Below, piece after piece: positions 1,778-40,456 of a stretch of DNA of 40,456 bases. Within the stretch, counting starts at the first letter, position 1. Every line of letters begins with the position of its first letter. Source of the DNA: a virus (lineage: Duplodnaviria > Heunggongvirae > Uroviricota > Caudoviricetes); IMG/VR virus record IMGVR_UViG_2778261534_000007, positions 1-40,456 of that record. One strand, given 5' to 3'. Position numbers and translations under genes: made by a program. The notes under the pieces are model-generated. The model was not told the origin of the DNA and searched no databases. It saw only the letters and a list, made by a program, of their open reading frames with translations.

Positions 1778-1978
1778 TTACCCATTGGCGCGGCTTAAGA
1801 GCTTATTTTTGAATTCACAATGGTCACGATATAACCATCTTGCTCGCCCGTGGATAACTTTGGCTTTTGGCAGGTCGCCGGACTTAATCCGGTCGTAGAT
1901 GAAGGTTTTACCAAAGCCAGTATCGGCCATGATGAATTTCAAATCAACCAGGGAATCAGGCTGTAGTTCGTGTTGCAT
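1778..1978 (-). CDS. torI: Excisionase / recombination directionality factor, TorI-like (66 aa)
   Basis: 66-aa winged-helix Xis-like protein (FGKTFIYDRIKSGDLPKAKVIHGRARWL); position adjacent to attR as in KplE1, where torI and intS sit at opposite prophage ends. Confidence 0.7.
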   Translation of the reverse strand: MQHELQPDSLVDLKFIMADTGFGKTFIYDRIKSGDLPKAKVIHGRARWLYRDHCEFKNKLLSRANG

Positions 1979-2023: not shown

Positions 2024-2044
2024 AAAAAACCGCCATCAGGCGGC
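2024..2044 (-). terminator. Putative intrinsic terminator downstream of the 99-aa Cys-rich gene
   Basis: Minus-strand hairpin CCGCC-TGAT-GGCGG followed by TTTTTTATT. Confidence 0.4.
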
Positions 2045-2086
2045 TTGGTGTTCTTTCAGTTCTTCAATTCGAATATTGGTTATGTC

Positions 2087-2386
2087 TTATTCGATGCGTA
2101 CTCCTGGTATTTCGCCTTTTGAAATGGCTAAGTCATAAATTTGCGCAGCACTATACCCATCTCGCATCCATGAATCTAAGGCGCGAATAGCCTCGCTACG
2201 CTTTTTATCTTCTCTTTCATTTTTGATATCAACGAGGACATCAACGCAATTAAGGCATATGTGGATTTTGTCCTTACATTCGATCATGGCGGCTTTACCA
2301 TGATTTCCGCCACACAGTGAGCATAAATCTTCAGGGTCTGGCTGGTATTTCTGTAACGTTAAAGGGTTGAATGTTGAACAGGCCAT
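2087..2386 (-). CDS. Hypothetical Cys-rich (zinc-finger-like) phage protein, ~99 aa
   Basis: ORF with GGAG RBS 6 nt upstream of the ATG at 2386; CSLCGG...CLNC motif pairs. Confidence 0.55.
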   Translation of the reverse strand: MACSTFNPLTLQKYQPDPEDLCSLCGGNHGKAAMIECKDKIHICLNCVDVLVDIKNEREDKKRSEAIRALDSWMRDGYSAAQIYDLAISKGEIPGVRIE

Positions 2387-2442
2387 AATCATCTCCATAA
2401 AACAAAACTCGCCGTAGCGAGTTCAGATAAAAGAAATCCGCA

Positions 2443-3243
2443 TTAAGCGGCGTCGGTGAATTCAAATAAAAAACCGGCTTGCGCCGGCTCTCTCATCTTT
2501 CTGTCTACCCATGCTGATATCGATGGTGGGTGCACCTTTTCAATAGCTGCGCGAAGTACAGCTGTACGTGCCAGTTTGTCGGTAATCTCAGGAAATCGCT
2601 TCTCTGTCTTCGGTACGTTAACAGCAACATTAGTAGAATCCGCACTGGCGAACGGATACATACCAAGAACTCTCACGTCGAGCATTCGAAGACCATGAAT
2701 TTTCACTTTCAAATTACGATTGATATAAAGCTCAGTGAAAACTTCATCCATTCTCTGTTCCCACCATTTAGAGCGTATGTGCCTGTGTGGGCCGCAGCAT
2801 CCAATCGCCACCCATTCAAATTTGCCAGAAAGGCGTAAAAGACGTTCAATTGATTCGTCGGTATGCCAGACCGGAACCGCTTTTGATTTTAGCCAATCAG
2901 GAACCAACTCAATCTGCTCGTCGTTTTCTGCCTCTGTCCCTTCGATAACGTCAGGTATAAGAAACCATTCAATTCTGCTGAACCACTTCCCAACAAAGTC
3001 GTAGAATTTTGCTCGTCTCTTACTCCAGTCTACCGGAGTGCCTTTCTTTAATGCTTTCATCCAGTCGCTAAAAGCGCCGTTATCAAGGCGTATATCACAA
3101 GGGAACATGGCAATCTTTTTCATCTGCTCTGGTCTGGCAAATGAAACAAAAGCCCCACCATCACGGTAAAGGGCTTTAATCAGCATATCTGTAGGGGCAT
3201 GCTCATCCCCCCATATTGGGCTGCCGTGAAAGTGGATGGTCAT
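2443..3243 (-). CDS. Hypothetical early-left accessory protein, 266 aa
   Basis: Long ORF in the early-left operon; family not recognised by inspection. Confidence 0.6.
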   Translation of the reverse strand: MTIHFHGSPIWGDEHAPTDMLIKALYRDGGAFVSFARPEQMKKIAMFPCDIRLDNGAFSDWMKALKKGTPVDWSKRRAKFYDFVGKWFSRIEWFLIPDVIEGTEAENDEQIELVPDWLKSKAVPVWHTDESIERLLRLSGKFEWVAIGCCGPHRHIRSKWWEQRMDEVFTELYINRNLKVKIHGLRMLDVRVLGMYPFASADSTNVAVNVPKTEKRFPEITDKLARTAVLRAAIEKVHPPSISAWVDRKMREPAQAGFLFEFTDAA

Positions 3244-3285
3244 ATTATCCCCATATAAAAGAAATCCCCGCGAGTGCGAGGATTG

Positions 3286-3570
3286 TTATTCAGTGCCGAT
3301 ATTTACCTTTATCGCGAACACCTTTACCGGTTTATCGCCGAAGTGGGGATGTGTGATTGTCTTGATTTCATATCCGTCATACGGAACATCAATTCTTCGG
3401 CTGGAATCGTCGCGCTTCGGATATCCCTTTGTGATAATCAGGCGGTCATACTCCCGGAACATAATTCGCTTATTCCAGTAGTCATTACACAGGCGATACT
3501 CTTCTGTTTTCTCTCCGCGAATCATGGCATCGAAGTATTCACCTTTGACGGCAAGTTGCAGGTTAGCCAC
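3286..3570 (-). CDS. Small phage protein, ASCH/DUF3850-like (94 aa)
   Basis: N-terminal pattern LAVKGEYFDAMIRGEKTEEYR resembles the ASCH/DUF3850 signature (pattern-level inference). Confidence 0.5.
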   Translation of the reverse strand: MANLQLAVKGEYFDAMIRGEKTEEYRLCNDYWNKRIMFREYDRLIITKGYPKRDDSSRRIDVPYDGYEIKTITHPHFGDKPVKVFAIKVNIGTE

Positions 3571-4096
3571 GGTTAACCTCCTGCGGCGGTTCTGGTAGCG
3601 GCATCCAGTGAGTTATTTCATCGGCAAAGATATCTGAGTTAAGTTCCGTCCAACTATTCCAATACCCAGATTCATCCCACCATTTAACCTCGACATGCTC
3701 TCCGTCGGTCACTAACACATCAGCATACCCTTTCGGCATTCGCTCACTACAGCTTATCCAACCATCCGGAGTTACCGGAGAGTTGCCATTTACATCGAAG
3801 TTTGGCTCTGCGTCCTGAACCAGGAGGATGTAACCATTCTTGGCTGTATCAAGTTCTAACGCCTCGGTGACGGTGCCGAAATAGCGATTACCTAAATCAG
3901 CATCACAAGTGCTTACATCAATGGAAACTTCCATGCCTTCGATTAATTCTGGCAAGTTGTAAGTTTGGCTTACAGGCTCTGCTTCCAGCGATGCCAGCGC
4001 AATCCGTGCCAGTTCCATTTGTTCGCCACGAGTAAGTCCGTTATCAAGCGGATTTTTAATGAATAATTTGATACGTTCTTTGGTTATAGCGCTCAT
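3563..4096 (-). CDS. Phage protein with C-terminal DUF551-like domain (177 aa)
   Basis: C-terminal W-rich segment (VKWWDESGYWNSWTEL...HWMPLPEPP) typical of DUF551 in lambdoid early regions; 4-nt overlap with the upstream gene. Confidence 0.6.
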   Translation of the reverse strand: MSAITKERIKLFIKNPLDNGLTRGEQMELARIALASLEAEPVSQTYNLPELIEGMEVSIDVSTCDADLGNRYFGTVTEALELDTAKNGYILLVQDAEPNFDVNGNSPVTPDGWISCSERMPKGYADVLVTDGEHVEVKWWDESGYWNSWTELNSDIFADEITHWMPLPEPPQEVNRG

Positions 4097-4097
4097 A

Positions 4098-4592
4098 TCA
4101 CTCTCCTTTGGTGCGAATGCCAGTGGTACTCATTCTCCTGATTTCCCAGAGCACACGAGGAATACCACCGTTTCCGACCGGATCGCGTTTACTCCGCAGG
4201 GCGACGCTTGATTCCGCCCAGCTTTTTCTTGGAGGAAGCTCTTTCACACGAACAAAACCAGCTGCGCGAAGAGATGCTCCTGATTCATCTGCCTGGGTGT
4301 ACGTAATACAACGTTGATAACCCATAGCTTTTGCTGCCCGCCAGACAGCACCATAAAGCGCGCTGTTAGCGTTGCGTTCTCCTGTGGTACATGTGCGATT
4401 TACTTCAAGCGTTAATCCATCGTCCAAATGTCGTGCAACAGGTCGACCAGCTGTCGCCACACCTATCAATTCTCCGGCATTATTTCTCAGACCAATGCTG
4501 AATTTATGCCCCACTGGTGGTTTATTGTGTCGGTGGTGCTGTGCGATAAATTCCTGCGCCGCTTTCAGCGTTATAGGTGAAATGACCATCAC
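4098..4592 (-). CDS. Hypothetical early-left accessory protein, 164 aa
   Basis: ORF translationally coupled to neighbours; family not recognised by inspection. Confidence 0.55.
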   Translation of the reverse strand: MMVISPITLKAAQEFIAQHHRHNKPPVGHKFSIGLRNNAGELIGVATAGRPVARHLDDGLTLEVNRTCTTGERNANSALYGAVWRAAKAMGYQRCITYTQADESGASLRAAGFVRVKELPPRKSWAESSVALRSKRDPVGNGGIPRVLWEIRRMSTTGIRTKGE

Positions 4593-5194
4593 TCAGACTC
4601 CTCCTTGATGCCAGCGGCGCGCTCGGCTTCACTTTGTTCCCAAAACCACTTGTGAAGCGCCATAAGCTTTTCGTCAATCGGTGCATATTTGCGATTAAAG
4701 TAGGCCTGAGCATCTTTCTCAGATTCGTCCGGTAATTCGCCAGGGCCAAACAGTGTGTTATAAATCCATGCCAGTCCGCTCTTAGCGTCGCCAGTTGCCT
4801 GCCATTCGATAATGGCAGCCTGCATGACCAGAATGTTTTTCCCGATTAATAGGTCCAGTTCTTTGTACCGGTTGCGGATGTATGCATTCTCGCTTTGTAA
4901 TTCAGCGTTTCGCTTCTCTGCTGCTTCCAGCTCATCCAGCAGCGCCAAGACGGTAGCCGGATTGGCTGCGGCGATGAATTCAGCATTGGCCTGCTGTTCC
5001 ATTTGGAAATCTTCATCGAAACCGCTTTCAGGATGCGCTCCTTCAATTCTGCAAATGGGAATATATCCAGCAACTTCACGATGAATTAGCGCATCATCAC
5101 CATCAAATCGGCCCTCTCCATATTCGAGCGACCACACACCACACGTTGCTTTTTCTGCCTTGGCACGCAGTACCTGATAGTCAATCTTGCTCAC
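4589..5194 (-). CDS. Ead/Ea22-like coiled-coil phage protein
   Basis: Central heptad/coiled-coil segment ([30 protein letters not shown]); likely GTG start at 5194 preceded by AAGGAGG. Confidence 0.55.
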
Positions 5195-5358
5195 TGGTTG
5201 CCTCCTTTGCGCCACATCGCATTCAGATATTTGTTTTGATTCACTGATGGAAAAGAATTTCTCTTAAGCAATTCCTCTCTCGATGGCATTGGCTTTACGC
5301 GTTGGCGAATAATCATTTCTGCCGGAAGAATGCCTGGATTGTATGCAAGTCCTCTCAT
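5191..5358 (-). CDS. Small hypothetical protein (55 aa), below the ORF-track size cutoff
   Basis: ATG at 5358 preceded by AAAGAGGAA RBS; stop overlaps the start of the next gene. Confidence 0.3.
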
Positions 5359-5374
5359 GGTAAATTCCTCTTTG

Positions 5375-5689
5375 TTAATTTATTCGTATGCCTGCTCTTT
5401 CTTCATCGAGTTTTTTTAGCTTGTATCGCATAGCTCTTACTGAATAAATTGAGCGGCAGGTTGCAATTGCTATTTCTTCTGCGGAGAACTTACCGAAAAG
5501 TGATACTTCGGCTCTTGTCCAGCGTCTTCCACGAAGTCGGCTAACAATGTCAGCGCCAATCCTTGTTGCTTTCGCCATTACTGCTTTTTCAGTCCTTTCC
5601 AGTTTTTCAGCGATAACTTCAACTGGCATTGTCGCCGCCACTTCGCGCAAGAAATCGACTTCCCATTTCTCCCATGGAGTCTTTTTCAT
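5375..5689 (-). CDS. Hypothetical phage protein, 104 aa
   Basis: ORF in operon context downstream of the RecT module. Confidence 0.5.
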
Positions 5690-5700
5690 AGGCGATACCG

Positions 5701-6189
5701 TTATTTGATAAGAAGTGAAGGTTTCCCAACTTTGAGTTGAGCACCGGGGATATTTATTCCTGCTTTTAGTTGGTGTTTGATTGCCAGTTTGTCGGCTTTA
5801 ATTGTCGTTTCAAACTCAACGTATTCAGGAGGAAGGGCGCTTGAGTCGATGATTTCTACAGTTTCTGACGGTTTGCGGATTGTTACCTGGTGAATACCTG
5901 CTCTAATCTTTTTCTTGCCAACCATTTCAAGCGATGAGGCTATATATGCCATAATGCTATCAATCTTATTTTGAATTACTGCTGCTCGTTCATTCAGTGA
6001 CTTTGCCTCGTCCTTGAGGCGTTCAGCATAACCAGATTCATTTTTAATAATGGCAAGAAGTTGCTCTATTTTATCGGTAAATTCTCCTTCCATGCCTTCT
6101 ATTGTGTCAGCAATCATCTCTGGTTCTAAATCTGAATCCATCAATTTTGCGTATTCATTGGCAATTTCATATAGTTTGCTCACTGGCAA
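5701..6189 (-). CDS. Recombination-associated protein, siphovirus Gp157-like (162 aa)
   Basis: Immediately downstream of and overlapping recT; acidic helical N-terminus; Gp157-family assignment is by resemblance and synteny. Confidence 0.5.
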   Translation of the reverse strand: MPVSKLYEIANEYAKLMDSDLEPEMIADTIEGMEGEFTDKIEQLLAIIKNESGYAERLKDEAKSLNERAAVIQNKIDSIMAYIASSLEMVGKKKIRAGIHQVTIRKPSETVEIIDSSALPPEYVEFETTIKADKLAIKHQLKAGINIPGAQLKVGKPSLLIK

Positions 6190-7069
6190 CCTCCAGTTTC
6201 GCTTTGCATTCTATGTAAATGGCTTGTATGTTCTGCTGCAATTTCATTCCAGATGTCAGGCGATATGCTTCTGCAAAATATCTCTTCAAATCATCCATGT
6301 TTTCAGACTGAGCCATTTCATCACAAAGAAGTTGTGCTTTATCCGTTATTTCCTGCTGGCGTTTCCGTTCATCTTCGCGGATATCTTCCTCTGATTTGTG
6401 CGGCATAACTGGTTCCTGATGCATACCTTCATCTTCGTTAAGCAGGTGAATGGCATTATCCAGTCGCTGGGCTTTAGGCCAGTATTTGCTGGCGCGTTTA
6501 ACTATTGTTTTACGCGCCATCTCTTCCCAGAATGTCTTCCACGGTCCATTCTTTGCCTTGCTCGTTGCTTCCACAGCTTTAATTTCTGCCAGACTCATTT
6601 CTTCAGTGAGGTAGTCACCATCTGCTGTTTTAACCGTACAATAACCACCAACAATAGAGCCTCGCTCACCAAATGCGTTGTATTTGTGGGTTGGTGCTGA
6701 ATCAAGGCCGTTTGATTCATAGGTGTCGTTTGAGTACACCAGTTTGCATTGCCCCCACTTAATTGATCCTGTCGATTGCGCAAGATGAAGTAATCCCATG
6801 TAACTGATATCAAGGCAAACCATGCCGTCGCGAGGAACCAGATAAGCCAGTTTGCTGGCCGGGTTTAAGGTGATGCCGATCGCCGCAACATTGATGATGG
6901 CGTTCTGTGCGCTGGTTGGATTTGCCAGTGCCGTTTTAGCCAGGTAATCATTTTTCTGGAAATACTGAATTGCAAACTGGCTTTCCTTAGCCCATGTCAC
7001 CGTCTGTTCAGTCAATGCTCCGCAGAATAACTGCTCCTGCTGTTTAACGAATTCAACGATATTGCTCAT
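6167..7069 (-). CDS. recT: RecT-family single-strand annealing recombinase (300 aa)
   Basis: RecT-family similarity across the length (NVAAIGITLNPASKLAYLVPRDG...); located in the position of lambda bet. Confidence 0.8.
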   Translation of the reverse strand: MSNIVEFVKQQEQLFCGALTEQTVTWAKESQFAIQYFQKNDYLAKTALANPTSAQNAIINVAAIGITLNPASKLAYLVPRDGMVCLDISYMGLLHLAQSTGSIKWGQCKLVYSNDTYESNGLDSAPTHKYNAFGERGSIVGGYCTVKTADGDYLTEEMSLAEIKAVEATSKAKNGPWKTFWEEMARKTIVKRASKYWPKAQRLDNAIHLLNEDEGMHQEPVMPHKSEEDIREDERKRQQEITDKAQLLCDEMAQSENMDDLKRYFAEAYRLTSGMKLQQNIQAIYIECKAKLEVASEQTI

Positions 7070-7730: not shown

Positions 7731-7793
7731 GGGTAACTCCTTATATTTGATTGCATAACGAAAACGCCTCGAGTGAAGCGTTATTGGTATGCA

Positions 7794-7820
7794 TATAAAA
7801 AGGCCCTCACACTGGAGGGC
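7794..7820 (-). terminator. Intrinsic terminator (tL1-like) between the 156-aa gene and cIII
   Basis: Minus-strand hairpin GCCCTC-CAGTGT-GAGGGC followed by CTTTTTAT. Confidence 0.5.
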
Positions 7821-7924
7821 AAAGAAGATTTTCAATAATCAGAACAAGTCGGCTCCTGTTTAGTTACGAGCGACATTGCTCCGTGTATTCACTCGTTGGA
7901 ATGAATACACAGTGCTTATTTGTA

Positions 7925-8395
7925 CTAATAAAATACCCAATTTTCTGTTTCTTGGTTGTGTCCAAAGTTATATTCAATATCTGGTGTTGATGTATCAATA
8001 TTCTTCATCCCATCAACAAGAGTTGATACAACAGCCAAATCTTGTTTGATTCTCATTAAATGGTATTTCTTCCGGCGCAATAAACTTTCAATGGCAAGTT
8101 TCTTCGTTGGGAATGCAAAAGATCTTTCTGCATTTTTTGCTACTTTCTTAATTGCATATCTATTTCTCTTTTGTTTCCATTCCTGTAACCACTGATTTGG
8201 TGCTGGTTTAAAATTAACAATCCAATGCGCAGGAACCAACCATGCATAATGCTCTGTCTGATGAAAAGCTATATATTGAAGTGCGAATATTTTGATTCCA
8301 TCTTCTTCAACTGTCGCCTGGAATCTCCAGAAAACAGGCATTCCATCATGTTCAGTTTCTGATTCAGGAAAAGGTACGCTCCATGATTTTGTCAT
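7925..8395 (-). CDS. Hypothetical AT-rich accessory protein (156 aa) in the N-cIII (sieB/ral) slot
   Basis: ORF with markedly lower GC than the flanking N and cIII genes; followed by a 9-bp-stem inverted repeat (7883..7910); no family recognised. Confidence 0.6.
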   Translation of the reverse strand: MTKSWSVPFPESETEHDGMPVFWRFQATVEEDGIKIFALQYIAFHQTEHYAWLVPAHWIVNFKPAPNQWLQEWKQKRNRYAIKKVAKNAERSFAFPTKKLAIESLLRRKKYHLMRIKQDLAVVSTLVDGMKNIDTSTPDIEYNFGHNQETENWVFY

Positions 8396-8403
8396 ATCTC
8401 ACC

Positions 8404-8730
8404 TCAAATAAGTGGCTTGCTGCCTAATTTCATTTTCTGGCGACCAACACAAGTCACACCCATTTCACTGCGTGGCTTGCTGTACCATGTGCGCTGATTC
8501 TTGCGCTCAATACGTTGCAGGTTGCTTTCAATCTGTTCGTGGTATTCAGCCAGCACCGTAAGGTCTATCGGATTCAGTGCGCTTTCTACTCGTGATTTCG
8601 GTTTGCGATTCAGCGAGAGAATTGGGCGGTTAACTGGTTTTGCGCTTACCCCAACCAACAGGGGATTTGCTGCTTTCCATTGAGCCTGTTTAGCTGCGCG
8701 GCGTTCGCGGCGGCGTGTTTGTGCATCCAT
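8404..8730 (-). CDS. N: Antitermination protein N (lambda-type)
   Basis: Near-identity to lambda N as recalled (MDAQTRRRERRA.KQAQWKAANPLLVGVSAKPVNRPILSLNRKPKSRVESALNPIDLTVLAEYH...). Confidence 0.9.
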   Translation of the reverse strand: MDAQTRRRERRAAKQAQWKAANPLLVGVSAKPVNRPILSLNRKPKSRVESALNPIDLTVLAEYHEQIESNLQRIERKNQRTWYSKPRSEMGVTCVGRQKMKLGSKPLI

Positions 8731-10641: not shown

Positions 10642-11286
10642 ATGACATACGAAAATGACAAATTCCAGGTTCTGAAGAGCATGAAGGTGCCAGATGATTT
10701 TAAATCAAATGGCTTTGTTTATGTGCTTTCGAATGAGTGCATGCCGGGAATTTATAAGATTGGGATGACTAAGCATTCACCAGAAGTTAGGGCTAAAGAA
10801 ATTTCAGCCTCTACTGGCGTTCCTAAGCCATTTAAGGTGATAGCAGCCTTTCATTCAAATAATCCCGCATCAGATGAAAAACTTATTCATAAAGCCTTTG
10901 CAAAAGAGAGGCTTAGTGATAATCGAGAGTTTTTCAAGCTTGAAGATAATGATCTTTATGAATCTCTAAATGAAATAAGGGCGCTGGTTGGCCCTGAAAG
11001 AAATGGCGAGACGGCAGAATACGCAATTTACGACTCATTCATTTCTTTTCGCCATGAAAATGAGCTTGATCTTAATGAGGAGCTTATAGAGCAAGGTCTG
11101 GGTAGTGTAGTTGGTCATCTTCCTGCGGTGAAAAATTTCCTTATTCGCGCCGGAATTGATTACGCGAAGCAACTGATAAGCAAATATAACTCATCGATAG
11201 TTATTAATACAGATGGCAGTGTGGTGATGGTTAAGTCTCTTGAAGCCCAATGCTTTGATGCGGAGGTTGGAAATGAGCCTTGCTGA
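10642..11286 (+). CDS. T5orf172 / GIY-YIG-like domain protein (214 aa), inserted between cII and O
   Basis: N-terminal motif GFVYVLSNECMPGIYKIGMT (GIY...YIG-like spacing) with a downstream conserved Arg and acidic residues; AGGAG RBS; more AT-rich than its neighbours; 3' end overlaps the O start by 14 nt. Confidence 0.6.
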   Translation: MTYENDKFQVLKSMKVPDDFKSNGFVYVLSNECMPGIYKIGMTKHSPEVRAKEISASTGVPKPFKVIAAFHSNNPASDEKLIHKAFAKERLSDNREFFKLEDNDLYESLNEIRALVGPERNGETAEYAIYDSFISFRHENELDLNEELIEQGLGSVVGHLPAVKNFLIRAGIDYAKQLISKYNSSIVINTDGSVVMVKSLEAQCFDAEVGNEPC

Positions 11287-35698: not shown

Positions 35699-35786
35699 CG
35701 TAACCTACTGGATAAATACTCAATAGTACCATTTCGGTATGCAATCACATCATGGTTGCATCATATCATTCGTCTGGAGCAATGAA

Positions 35787-38024
35787 ATGTCAGATATCAC
35801 CGCAAATGTTGTGGTAAGCATGCCTTCGCAACTCTTCACTATGGCGCGTTCTTTTAAAGCGGTTGCCAATGGCAAAATTTATATCGGAAAAATTGACACT
35901 GACCCGGTAAATCCTGAAAACCAGATTCAGGTTTATGTAGAGAATGAAGACGGTTCTCACGTTCCTGTTTCGCAACCAATCATCATTAACGCTGCTGGAT
36001 ATCCGGTATATAACGGACAGATTGCCAAATTCGTTACCGTGCAAGGCCATTCGATGGCTGTTTATGATGCGTATGGTGCGCAGCAGTTCTATTTTCCGAA
36101 TGTTCTTAAATATGATCCTGATCAGCTTAAAGTATCTCTATCAGGGAAAGACGGTCTTAAATACATCGGGACATGCCCTGATATAGCAATGTTAAGGACA
36201 ATTGAGCCTGAGCGAGATCAGCAAAAGATTTTCGTCGACTTCCACACTACAGGCATGAAGCCTACAGTATCAGGTGATACTGGTGGTGGTCTGTTTGTGT
36301 CAGATTTCACAGATTCTACTTCTGCAGATGATAACGGCATGGTCATTGTCACTGCGGGTGGTAAACGCTGGAAACGTGATCTTCAAGGTAAGGGGTATGT
36401 AACACCACGTATGTTTGGTGCGTGGATGGATGCTCCATATATTGACTGGAATACTATTCAGGCCACAGGGTATCCTAGAGCGCCAAGCATGGGTGGCGTC
36501 GATTTAACAGGAGTAACAAATGATGGATTAGCACTTAATAAAGCTTATCTAACTAAGCTTCCTGTTTTCATAGACCAGCCCATATATATGGGTAACACTC
36601 AAATTGACATTAGCCAGTTTAGATGGGAAGGGATTAGTCTAAATCTATATGGGATTAATCCACAAAAAAGTATTGTTTATACATCAGGAAGTGGTGGTTT
36701 TGTTATGGGAAGTTGGGGGCACAATCTTAAAGTAAAGAATATGTGTTTTCGCAACGCTGACGATGAATATTCAGGTAGCCCATTGGTCATTTCTGGTCAA
36801 ACACAAACTTTTGGCGGTGGTAGTGAATATGATATTAAAAATAACATATTTCTACATTATAAATTTGCACTTCCCTTATCATGCTTTGTCAGTAATGTTA
36901 CAAACAACCAAGCATATGATTGTATCTATGGTTTCGGTTTGGCTGGCACATCTACTACATTCTCTTCCAACTGGGCAAGGCATTGTGACTACGGATATCT
37001 GTGGGGCGCGGCTATTGATAGAACAACATATGATCCGGTGAACAGTCCTTACCCATTGATGTATGTTAAGGCCACAAATATCGCGTCGGATGGATGTAAA
37101 TTACCACATAAGTTCTATCAATTTAGATCTTTAAGTATTGATGGTCTAGGTATTGAGGGTGTCACAGGAGATCATTGCTTAGATTTTACAGATATAGTTC
37201 AGCAGGATGCTACTTCGCTAATGGAGTTGTCAAATATCTCATGCAATCTTAAGGAAGACAATTCGGTAGGTGTGACGCACTTCATATCATTGCCAACTAA
37301 TGAACAGAATGGACCAACACAAGTTAGGATATTATCTGGATATGTTCGGGCATACAAAGGGATTACCATTCTTAAGAATACATCTGACGAGTCAAGCCAG
37401 TATCAATGCCGTGGGTTTGATATTTGTGATGGGTTCAAATTCATAAAGCAAACAAGCGGTAGTTCTATCGCTGATGACTACGTTAGAGGGAGTAAATATC
37501 ATTCAAGATTCTATGGTGAACATACAGGTATTGGTTATCAGACAGGCTCTAATGGCACTAAACTTTCAGCATTACATCAGGCATCAAATGCAGTATATCC
37601 ACAAGTTATTACAGAGAACGGTACAATACTCATGCCTTATGGGAGGGCTCTCGATATTCTTATAGCAACAGATGGAGAGGAATCGTATTATACTGGTGGT
37701 GTTTTTATTGCCGGTGAGATAAGTATAATTCCTATTAACCAAAATGGATTGGGAGGGGTTAACGAAAATGGAGGGGTTATTTTATTTAGCGTTTCAGCTA
37801 AAGATCAAGCAACGTTATTATCATCAAAAGTTTGGGTAAATAAAATTACAGGAGACAAGCTATTAAATAATGTAGTGGTTTCCAAGTACAACAATGGAAG
37901 CCAAACAATACTAAGGATAAACTTCGCAACAGCAACCATCTCTCAAGCCATATTGCATATTACACTAACCTCACAAGGTCGGATGCATTACTATGATAAG
38001 AGATGGAAAATTGTAACTCCGTGA
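35787..38024 (+). CDS. Tailspike protein: P22-type N-terminal head-binding domain plus divergent beta-helix receptor-binding domain
   Basis: Residues 1-~115 match the P22 gp9 N-domain as recalled ([11 protein letters not shown]...F...[35 protein letters not shown]...VLKYDPDQ); the remainder diverges and is AT-rich; GGAG RBS. Confidence 0.85.
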
Positions 38025-38055: not shown

Positions 38056-39054
38056 TTATATTAAATGTTTTGTTATTTTATTCTTTGATAGTAAATAACA
38101 AATTAAAGCTGAAATTGCGAAATATATTATGGTGAGTACAGGTATCATATACCATGCATTAACAGGACTGTAGCCAAACTTTATCTCTCTGACTAATATA
38201 AAATGTATGAAATAGATACCAAAAGATAGTCCTGAAATTGTCCTTATAAAGGAAAGCACATGATCAGATACACGATCCTTAACTGAAATGCAAAACATGA
38301 ACGTGAAGATAGCACTTGCAAAAACAAATGGAGCAGTATTTTTAAAGAAAAGCTGTTCCGGCCTACCAACCTTGCTGGACCACCATATTGTAGCTAAAAC
38401 AGTAGCCACGCTAAAGAAGACAACAAGCAGGAAATAAATTATCCAACTAATAGTTGAAATTCTGTCTCTATATCTTCTTAGTATAGCGCCAACAAGAATG
38501 TATATGCCATTCTCTGAAATAAAATCCAACTTAAGCCATGTAAGGCTAAACATTGTTCTGTGAATGTACGGAACGAGTGAGTGAACGTAAAACAACATCG
38601 CTATTATCATCAGTATATAATACGATGGCAAATTCTTAAGTGGATTACTTATTATTGGTAAAAACATATACATGCAAATATATGTATACATAAACCATAA
38701 ATGGACCTCTGAATGTTGAAATAATGACGATATTTTAAGTCCGTTATAGTGATTATTATATAAAAAATAAAACAGCCACCAAAACATAAAAGGAATAAAG
38801 AGTTTTCTAACCCCTTTTGCTAAATGATTTGAAGCCTCTATCTCCTTTTTATAATAAAGGTATCCTGTTATTATAAAGAATAACCCAATACATTGTCGTG
38901 TAAATGAACTATACGTTGTTATAGTATTCCATGAGTCGCTGAATGCAAGGAAGTAAGCTCCTGACGCATGTAACATAACCACAAGAAAGATAGCTAAACT
39001 TCTTGCTATATGCACTTCATTTAACTCTATTCTATTTTGTCGAATATCAGACAT
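38056..39054 (-). CDS. Integral-membrane acyltransferase (acyltransferase-3 family; O-antigen acetylase Oac-like), 332 aa
   Basis: About 10 predicted TM helices; N-terminal motif RSLAIFLVVMLHA typical of the acyltransferase-3 family; very AT-rich; located between tailspike and integrase, where seroconversion genes sit in P22-like phages. Confidence 0.75.
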   Translation of the reverse strand: MSDIRQNRIELNEVHIARSLAIFLVVMLHASGAYFLAFSDSWNTITTYSSFTRQCIGLFFIITGYLYYKKEIEASNHLAKGVRKLFIPFMFWWLFYFLYNNHYNGLKISSLFQHSEVHLWFMYTYICMYMFLPIISNPLKNLPSYYILMIIAMLFYVHSLVPYIHRTMFSLTWLKLDFISENGIYILVGAILRRYRDRISTISWIIYFLLVVFFSVATVLATIWWSSKVGRPEQLFFKNTAPFVFASAIFTFMFCISVKDRVSDHVLSFIRTISGLSFGIYFIHFILVREIKFGYSPVNAWYMIPVLTIIYFAISALICYLLSKNKITKHLI

Positions 39055-39298: not shown

Positions 39299-40456
39299 TC
39301 ACTCCACCTTTTCATCAATCCAGTCCGCCCACCACTGCATCATTTCTCTGCGCTTATCGAGATACTGAGCATGGTTGTAAATCCCGCGCACAGAACCGCC
39401 GTTGGCATGTGCCAGTTGCACTTCAATAGCATCAGCAGGCCATTCGTGCTCGTTCATAATCGTGCTGAATTCATGCCTGAATCCGTGACCGCTTTCCAGA
39501 CCCTCATAGCCGATTTGTTTGATCACAAGCAGTACCGCGTTCTCGCAGATTGGCTTCTTCTTATCGTTGCGACCGGCAAAAACAAACTCTGATACTGGTT
39601 TGGTGATTGAGCTTAGCGTAGTGAGAAGTTCAACCACCTGGTCTGACATAGGAACCACATGAATTTTGCGTCCCTTCATCACACTGGCGTCGATGGTGAT
39701 AATCCTGTTTTCAAAATCGACGTTCTTCCATAGCATAGAACGAAGCTCTTTTGTTCTGAGGGCTGTGTAGCGTAAAACTTTGGTCGCAATGAGCGATACG
39801 ATGCTTCCTGAAAATGTTGCCAGTGCTTTGTTAAATGCCGGGATCTGGTCTGCAGGAAGAAACGGGAAGTTTTTCTTGCGGTATCCCTTCATGGCGTCAG
39901 CAAGGTCAGGTGCCGGGTTATATTTAGCCCTACCAGTGACAATAGCGTAACGGAAAACCTCGCCGCATCTTCTGCGTGCTTTGTTGGCTCGCTCCATTGC
40001 CCCGCGATCTTCAAATCTGCGGATTACTTCCAGCAGTTGCATCGGCTCAATATCCTGAATTTCAAGGCCGCCGATGATAGGTAAAATGTCGTCATCAAAC
40101 ATTTTTGCAAGTTCAGTCGCATAGGCGGCTGACCAGACTTGCTTCTTGTGCTCGTACCATTCCTTGTAAATCGCACTAAAGGAATTGTTGTTAGACGAAG
40201 CCTTTTTCGCCTTTACCGGATCGATGCCAACCGAGATGTCTTTCCTCGCAGTCCATGCCTTATCCCTTGCCTCCTGCAAAGTCATAAGCGGATATTTTCC
40301 GACGGTCAGGATTTTCTCCTTACCGTCAATCTTGTAGCGAAGCTGCCATACCTTTTTCCCTGATACAGGAACATAAAGGTACAGGCCATTACCATCGAGA
40401 AGGCGGTATGGTTTTTCTTTCGGCTTTGCTGCCTCAATCTGCTTAACGGTGAGCAT
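39299..40456 (-). CDS. intS: Tyrosine site-specific integrase (P4/IntS family), 385 aa
   Basis: SAM-like and catalytic domains (R...HGFRHEFSTIM...Y region); start codon is the last base of the window, so the promoter and attL/argW lie outside. Confidence 0.9.
   Translation of the reverse strand: MLTVKQIEAAKPKEKPYRLLDGNGLYLYVPVSGKKVWQLRYKIDGKEKILTVGKYPLMTLQEARDKAWTARKDISVGIDPVKAKKASSNNNSFSAIYKEWYEHKKQVWSAAYATELAKMFDDDILPIIGGLEIQDIEPMQLLEVIRRFEDRGAMERANKARRRCGEVFRYAIVTGRAKYNPAPDLADAMKGYRKKNFPFLPADQIPAFNKALATFSGSIVSLIATKVLRYTALRTKELRSMLWKNVDFENRIITIDASVMKGRKIHVVPMSDQVVELLTTLSSITKPVSEFVFAGRNDKKKPICENAVLLVIKQIGYEGLESGHGFRHEFSTIMNEHEWPADAIEVQLAHANGGSVRGIYNHAQYLDKRREMMQWWADWIDEKVE

Follow-up and report, generated by a model that had tools for sequence, protein, structure and literature searches.

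The region between positions 2087 and 5689 of the viral record IMGVR_UViG_2778261534_000007 (Caudoviricetes), a stretch of 40,456 nucleotides (nt) referred to here as the window, is, in a P22-like/lambdoid prophage, the promoter-distal part of the early-left (PL) operon antiterminated by N, and it holds a mosaic of independently exchangeable accessory modules that do not make up one system. Two of its genes are enzyme-sized, and each is a new member of a family that is known but whose biology is not fully understood. The first encodes a protein of 266 amino acids (aa) that its sequence identifies as a candidate DpdA of minimal, stand-alone ('singleton') type, within the TGT superfamily; the second encodes a 164-aa GNAT protein of the XF1762 family, which we tentatively take to work 'like Mom'. 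For this explanation as a whole we estimate a probability of about 0.6.

A preliminary description of the region had found no nameable motif in the 266-aa protein, and on this point the analysis departs from it. The protein matches PHROG 887 ('queuine tRNA-ribosyltransferase') at E 1e-102 and is, in tblastn comparisons, 99% identical to HK106 gp29, 58% identical to gp032 of Salmonella phage 7-11 and 43% identical to gp38 of Pantoea phage MED16, the last two being DpdAs. A profile built from 39 homologs scores 367 bits on the 7-11 DpdA and 316 bits on that of MED16, and the same profile reaches gp6 of Streptococcus phage MS1 (38 bits, E 6e-14), which belongs to a full operon for 7-cyano-7-deazaguanine (preQ0) of composition QueC-QueD-QueE-FolE-Vut_1-DpdA; the D-x-x-A/G-F/Y, P-V-x-H and S-A-D-S-T motifs align between the dpdA homologs and MS1 gp6. 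Searches of Pfam, NCBIfam, PADLOC and PDB sequences returned no match for the 266-aa protein, and PGAP labels it 'hypothetical protein' in E. coli genomes.

The AlphaFold2 model of the protein is an eight-stranded barrel with a mean confidence (pLDDT) of 90. Because Foldseek retrieves only generic TIM barrels from the PDB with this model and does not single out TGTs, the fold is supportive, not decisive. D54, D98, H127 and D202 are invariant in the 39 homologs and lie at the ends of strands 3, 4, 5 and 8 of the model, and G148 and G151, invariant too, lie at the end of strand 6. The order of these residues is that of D95, D130, H181, G206/G207 and D256 in bacterial DpdA, a correspondence of position and not of superposed structures. 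In the bacterial enzyme D95 is the general acid/base, D130 and H181 recognize the base and D256 is the nucleophile. The residues at the catalytic positions stay invariant in homologs down to ~43% identity. Only ~64 residues follow D202, and they contain no conserved Cys/His cluster; in bacterial DpdA and TGT a large beta8/alpha8 insertion houses a structural Zn2+ site.

No gene for preQ0 synthesis or transport was seen among 20 open reading frames (ORFs) of the window, in a scan that did not exhaust it. The lack of such linked genes is what defines the singleton DpdA group, and as neither the surroundings of dpdA nor the scanned ORFs supply any, the enzyme would have to draw on preQ0 from the host. 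The gene neighbourhoods of relatives also favour DpdA: a Vut_1/YhhQ-family gene lies directly upstream of the PEAT2 homolog (64% identical), phages Opt-719 and Sadiya have genes of the VUT family annotated beneath or next to the dpdA match, and QueD adjoins the dpdA relative of Caulobacter phage DMCA. The DpdA domain also occurs in two independent fusions with Dam, an N6-adenine DNA methyltransferase (P0006, 460 aa; L047:6001-7710, 569 aa).

The 164-aa protein scores 207.3 bits on the XF1762 model of NCBIfam (NF045478, cutoff 50) and matches PHROG 1384, 'Mom-like DNA modification protein'. It has a GNAT fold, and the closest solved structure is Mom of phage Mu; some XF1762 relatives exceed the cutoff of the Pfam Mom family, PF25680 (32.5 bits for P0305, 28.1 for P0321), and close homologs carry precomputed PF25680 matches. 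Across 150 diverse representatives of XF1762, H20-R21-H22, R66, N74, S77 and E103 are near-invariant, R66 and S77 each being kept in at least 146. Both hhalign and hmmalign place R66 on R111 of Mom, in alignments that are not statistically significant, and S77 can be matched with Mom S124 only through a common R-N-x-x-S motif read by eye. A loop of 25 residues modelled with low confidence (120-145) precedes the last strand, and this part is absent or variable in many relatives. The family is large, with 3,811 clusters at 50% identity, and is common in prophages; a literature search for 'XF1762' turned up no experimental study. Fusion proteins combine XF1762/Mom-like domains with a D12 N6A methyltransferase, with a C5 cytosine methyltransferase, with the YodL and LPD28 domains of polyvalent proteins, and with DUF6884 (P0310, P0352, P0345, P0368), and the methyltransferase and YodL/LPD28 fusions point to DNA-directed, establishment-type functions. 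With less support than is available for DpdA, the XF1762 protein may move an acyl or aminoacyl group onto a nucleic-acid base.

The cluster is a mosaic and not a system because across 79 viral contigs none of its genes accompanies dpdA as a conserved partner. These IMG/VR loci, which carry the same or a related dpdA, were compared by tblastn with all proteins of the window, and all their neighbouring ORFs were clustered de novo. The Cys-rich gene of the cluster neighbours dpdA in none of them, the XF1762 gene in two and the ASCH-like gene in eight, and in many loci dpdA is directly followed by the excisionase gene. No neighbour cluster tracks dpdA across identity groups; only two genes recur locally, namely a P2 GPA-type replication gene (12 loci) and a TraR/DksA zinc-finger gene (13 loci). 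A conserved partner that would make ADG from preQ0, with the ASCH-like or the Cys-rich gene as candidates, was thus considered and rejected. Likewise, the alleles of the window occur independently of each other in 5,426 complete E. coli genomes (dpdA in 82, strain W included, XF1762 in 144 and the Cys-rich gene in 316), at least 80% of the region is present at a single site in none of the public phages and complete E. coli genomes, and gene content varies freely among near-identical prophages.

Eight minus-strand ORFs fill the region between a TorI-type excisionase gene and a Gp157/RecT module (Table 1), all of them lying where the preliminary description had placed them, and as each matches a PHROG at E 5e-23 or better they are real genes and not chance ORFs. 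The prophage in the window is a complete one of P22-like/lambdoid type and adjoins cscB (1-1248), annotated in E. coli W as an oligosaccharide transporter of the major facilitator superfamily (MFS); the E. coli W prophage has a matching layout, the arrangement on the cscB side included. The junctions between RecT and the ASCH-like gene measure, in that order, -23, 11, 16, -4, -4, 1 and -8 nt, sizes that fit the translational coupling proposed earlier, whereas the 266-aa gene is set off by gaps of 42 and 44 nt, each with a terminator-like hairpin. Taken together, the coupled junctions, the hairpins around the 266-aa gene and the N gene upstream identify the region as distal within an early-left operon under antitermination, in support of the view that this is a lambdoid accessory region of the ea/exo-xis type with candidates for counter-defence-type functions. 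The hairpins bracketing dpdA look like a module boundary. The one within the last codons of dpdA encodes an ...AQAGFLFEF tail, and comparable hairpin-encoded tails end several homologs.

Table 1. Genes and terminator-like hairpins of the accessory region and its flanks, in window coordinates.
Feature	Coordinates	Strand	Size	Assignment or remark
Excisionase	1778-1978	-	66 aa	Named torI in E. coli W
Terminator-like hairpin	2027-2046	-		After Cys-rich gene, ahead of excisionase
Cys-rich protein	2087-2398	-	103 aa (likely 99 aa)	PHROG 3680, E 2.5e-69
Two terminator-like hairpins	2405-2493	-		2468-2493 in last dpdA codons; 2405-2424 in gap before Cys-rich gene
dpdA	2443-3243	-	266 aa	Candidate singleton DpdA-family DNA guanine/7-deazaguanine transglycosylase
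Terminator-like hairpin	3263-3284	-		Within 42-nt gap upstream of dpdA
ASCH/PUA-like protein	3286-3570	-	94 aa	PHROG 625, E 2e-51
Protein with C-terminal DUF551	3563-4096	-	177 aa	Pfam DUF551 (PF04448) 58.6 bits, cutoff 22, residues 112-172; PHROG 60
XF1762-family GNAT	4098-4592	-	164 aa	Candidate Mom-like nucleic-acid modification protein
Ead/Ea22-like protein	4589-5215	-	208 aa (likely 201 aa)	Pfam Ead_Ea22 (PF13935) 76.9 bits, cutoff 27, residues 9-120
DUF2737 protein	5191-5358	-	55 aa	Pfam DUF2737 (PF10930) 109.2 bits, cutoff 25
Small protein, possible helix-turn-helix	5375-5689	-	104 aa	PHROG 11492 (E 5e-23); PHROG 323 'transcriptional regulator' (E 3e-20)
Gp157	5701-6189			Flank opposite excisionase
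RecT	6167-7069			Flank opposite excisionase
N gene	8404-8730			Upstream of accessory region

Gene structure, family membership, fold, residue conservation, domain fusions and the lack of conserved synteny are established by the analysis; as to catalytic activities, substrates and any counter-defence effect, we infer the following course of events. After induction or infection the PL transcript would read through the hairpins, and DpdA would then swap some guanines in double-stranded phage DNA for preQ0 supplied by the queuosine pathway of the host. As with bacterial DpdA, the exchange would involve an intermediate in which an Asp is covalently bound to DNA, and the positional match with that enzyme would make D202 the nucleophile and D54 the general acid/base, with D98 and H127 reading the base. 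The DpdA of phage 9g, expressed alone in E. coli, put 2'-deoxy-7-cyano-7-deazaguanosine (dPreQ0) into plasmid DNA, and the host preQ0 pool hence suffices for at least that DpdA1-type enzyme. Judging from its relatives, modification by the window enzyme would be sparse, at 0.02-0.13% of G, present as dADG (2'-deoxy-7-amido-7-deazaguanosine): a gamma-proteobacterial group of singleton DpdAs has been defined, and 50 dADG per 10^6 nt were found in DNA of phage 7-11 (PMC6884629) and 354 per 10^6 nt in that of MED16 (PMC8306585). The biological payoff of such a modification is uncertain, and evading Dpd-type restriction, or some other narrowly aimed defence, is an alternative to a broad protective role.

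Several observations weigh against this explanation. By sequence, the dpdA profile reaches neither E. coli Tgt nor any TGT in the PDB, and the Zn-binding insertion that bacterial DpdA and TGT carry (Ins8) is absent from it. Modification by the singleton DpdAs examined to date is very slight, at no more than 0.13% of G; mycobacteriophage Orion, also a singleton carrier, has no modification (PMC6884629), and the dADG of MED16 did not visibly protect against any of the restriction enzymes tried (PMC8306585). On the side of Mom, the 164-aa protein itself scores 24.2 bits on PF25680, below the cutoff of 27.1, and comparison of its profile with Mu Mom is not significant (hhalign E 0.05, negative hmmsearch score). 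R151, essential in Mom, is not conserved, the A-D-E-R of Mom reading A-D-E-S in the 164-aa protein and the last position being S, P, T or N across the family, and the helix-turn-helix (HTH)-like insertion (~residues 175-209) that Mom needs for activity is missing. Finally, expression of mom has been placed late in the lytic cycle, whereas the XF1762 gene belongs to an early operon.

One or both of the presumed enzymes might then not be DNA modifiers at all. The DpdA-like barrel might have tRNA as its substrate, might attach a deazaguanine to protein as Cap10 does, or might be a near-inactive passenger, and the XF1762 protein could be an ordinary acetyl-CoA GNAT with a protein, a small molecule or tRNA as its substrate. 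We regard this as rather unlikely, given that both domains occur fused to DNA methyltransferases, that the invariance of the catalytic-position residues of DpdA argues against decay, that the ORFs scanned showed neither a CD-NTase nor a QueC-like Cap9 partner, and that in XF1762 an R-N-x-x-S stretch replaces the canonical acetyl-CoA loop of GNATs, much like R120-N121-S122-E123-S124 in Mom as read by eye. An active stand-alone DpdA might, on the other hand, serve a narrower purpose than broad anti-restriction, by setting a sparse, motif-specific 7-deazaguanine 'self' mark that mimics host Dpd modification, as an orphan methyltransferase would, and that allows escape from restriction of the Dpd type (dpdD-K). 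The levels seen in singleton phages resemble the <0.1% reported for bacterial DpdA, the dADG found in singleton phages is also the product of the bacterial Dpd system (PMC10164549, PMC6884629), the Dam methyltransferase to which DpdA is twice fused is of the orphan type, and it is ordinary restriction enzymes that MED16 dADG does not block. Nonetheless, no DpdB or DpdC homolog was detected among ten ORFs scanned, and a role of this kind appears quite improbable. Also improbable, in our view, is a more ambitious version of the preferred explanation, in which XF1762 is a second, minimal type of Mom-like enzyme that has no HTH insertion and acylates or aminoacylates a base. The prophage would in that case carry two orthogonal post-replicative hypermodification enzymes in a single early operon, with G as the target of DpdA and A or another base as that of XF1762, and with each drawing on a pool of the host (preQ0 for the former, charged tRNA or acyl-CoA for the latter).

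At the level of the whole region, the preliminary description had seen essentially uncharacterised genes jointly forming an island for anti-defence and host takeover. Five or six of the eight genes are indeed still without an assigned function, the position matches the accessory region of lambdoid phages, and the ORFs do not all resolve into characterised non-defence functions. 'Mostly unknown' remains a fitting label for the DUF551, DUF2737, ASCH-like, Cys-rich and 104-aa proteins and for the C-terminal module of the Ead/Ea22 protein, but not for the two largest of the supposed unknowns, which fall into named families. These two assignments, the free variation in gene content among near-identical prophages, the lack of a meaningful PADLOC match for any ORF, and the description of lambda Ea22, with its variable C-terminal domains, as pro-lysogenic and not as anti-defence all speak against a joint island, which we consider highly improbable. 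To call the region an island of uncharacterised genes is overstated.

Among the other genes of the cluster, the labels ASCH-like, DUF551-like and Ead/Ea22-like given in the earlier description are borne out, although the ASCH match stays below the Pfam cutoff (PF04266, 14.3 bits against 21.2) and involves only the first 23 profile positions; in the E. coli W prophage, PGAP gives the 94-aa gene at the corresponding position the name 'ASCH domain-containing protein'. DUF551 has been described as a portable domain, found also in YfdS of CPS-53 and in some Ea22 variants. In the Ead/Ea22 gene, GTG 5194 is the likelier start (201 aa), since AAGGAGG precedes it and it overlaps the stop codon upstream in a GTGA. 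The C-terminal half of this protein (residues 97-195) matches the PADLOC model PDLC02890, 'DpdH', at E 6e-37. A real DpdH would be much longer than the 127 positions of this model, which is probably a mislabelled prophage gene, and the match was set aside as a tie to Dpd systems. Of all neighbours, the DUF2737 gene recurs most constantly in related prophage contigs. The 104-aa protein scores 20.7 bits on Pfam HTH_12, below cutoff, and a repeated W-x3-E motif seen by eye might suggest a Myb/SANT-like reading. Direct searches of PDB sequences with the 266-, 164-, 94-, 104- and 177-aa proteins gave nothing meaningful.

For the Cys-rich gene, ATG 2386, with GGAG 7 nt upstream, yields the 99-aa form that is commonest in databases. 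C26, C29, C48 and C51 are invariant in 21 homologs, and the family (38 clusters) is confined to the Enterobacteriaceae. ClpX chains are the only PDB profile matches under E 1 (E 0.016-0.29), through a gapless alignment of 36 residues with the N-terminal zinc-binding domain; the protein scores 15.6 bits on Pfam zf-C4_ClpX (PF06689), below the cutoff of 27, and E 0.0025 on the NCBIfam ClpX model. These matches weakly suggest a C4 zinc ribbon that resembles only the N-terminal domain of ClpX. As a guess, it might act as a decoy for the binding of adaptors or substrates to ClpX.

Beyond the cluster, the TorI-type excisionase matches the PADLOC model 'mad1' (E 7.6e-14), which probably reflects a common small HTH fold and not a defence function. 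The 530 bp between cscB and the excisionase gene contain no integrase; a missing or degraded integrase at 1249-1777 was considered and rejected, as the integrase (385 aa; Arm-DNA-bind_3, Phage_int_M and Phage_integrase domains) sits at the opposite end of the prophage (39299-40456, minus strand), a split layout that is also that of K-12 prophage KplE1/CPS-53. An Acyl_transf_3 acyltransferase gene (38056-39054, minus strand), possibly an O-antigen-modifying moron, adjoins a 761-aa ORF (35739-38024) that is a putative tailspike gene. An AT-rich stretch at 7750-8500 (GC content 0.37-0.39, against ~0.45 nearby) contains, immediately downstream of the N gene, a 156-aa ORF (7925-8395, minus strand) of moron-like appearance and with no Pfam match. 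At the start of the early-right region, beside putative replication ORFs, a gene on the plus strand (10642-11286) encodes a protein with T5orf172/MUG113 domains, which we take to be GIY-YIG-related.

An active DpdA would mean that prophages of a kind common in E. coli modify their own DNA with 7-deazaguanine from host precursors only, and would extend to temperate lambdoid phages a chemistry studied mostly in virulent ones. Such a prophage would also provide a genetically easy system in which to address the purpose of sparse dADG or dPreQ0 marks, a question left by the singleton work of 2019-2021. The main upside of the locus is the XF1762 protein, as a tractable way into an unexplored, insertion-less branch of the Mom superfamily. 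In addition, the DpdA assignment can improve the 'hypothetical protein' annotation that PGAP gives in E. coli genomes.

Comparison with known systems places the window dpdA closest to the singleton DpdAs of 7-11 (gp032), MED16 (gp38) and HK106 (gp29), with which it shares family, size (~235-266 aa), invariant residues and the lack of nearby preQ0 synthesis genes. It differs from those of 7-11 and MED16 in its setting, since it belongs to the PL operon of a temperate P22-like prophage, beside the excisionase gene, and these two phages are not such prophages; the dADG of both requires, moreover, an additional amide-forming step. Bacterial DpdA, as known from Salmonella Montevideo (PDB 7ui4), is a larger protein (413 aa) with the Zn/DNA-binding Ins8 and the DpdA-specific Ins1 and Ins2, all three of which are missing here, and it works with DpdB, DpdC and dpdD-K partners, of which a PADLOC scan of ten window ORFs found none save the 'DpdH'-model match.

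Mu Mom (PDB 8bv8), which carries out the tRNA-Gly-dependent N6 carbamoylmethylation of adenine, shares with the 164-aa protein a GNAT fold and a Pfam/PHROG superfamily, and its H58, R111, S124 and E150 have likely equivalents in H20, R66, S77 and E103. Mom is, on the other hand, a protein of 231-241 aa with an HTH-like insertion and com-type control, whereas the 164-aa protein has neither, with just the low-confidence loop at 120-145 where the insertion would be, and is encoded in an early operon. The Cys-rich protein shares with the zinc-binding domain of ClpX the pattern C-x2-C-G...I-C-x2-C-V-D, over 36 residues without gaps, and departs from ClpX in its scores below threshold, in having no AAA+ module, and in possessing an extra conserved YQPDPEDL motif at the N-terminus and a helical tail at the C-terminus. 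As for the region as a whole, the exo-xis region of lambda and the ea region of P22 (Ea22, Orf60a-63, Ea8.5), together with yfdQRST of CPS-53/KplE1, occupy the same position, are transcribed early and have in common with the window the Ead/Ea22, DUF551 (as YfdS) and DUF2737 modules and the mosaic exchange of C-terminal domains; to this shared plan the window adds two candidate modification enzymes and a RecT/Gp157 recombination module.

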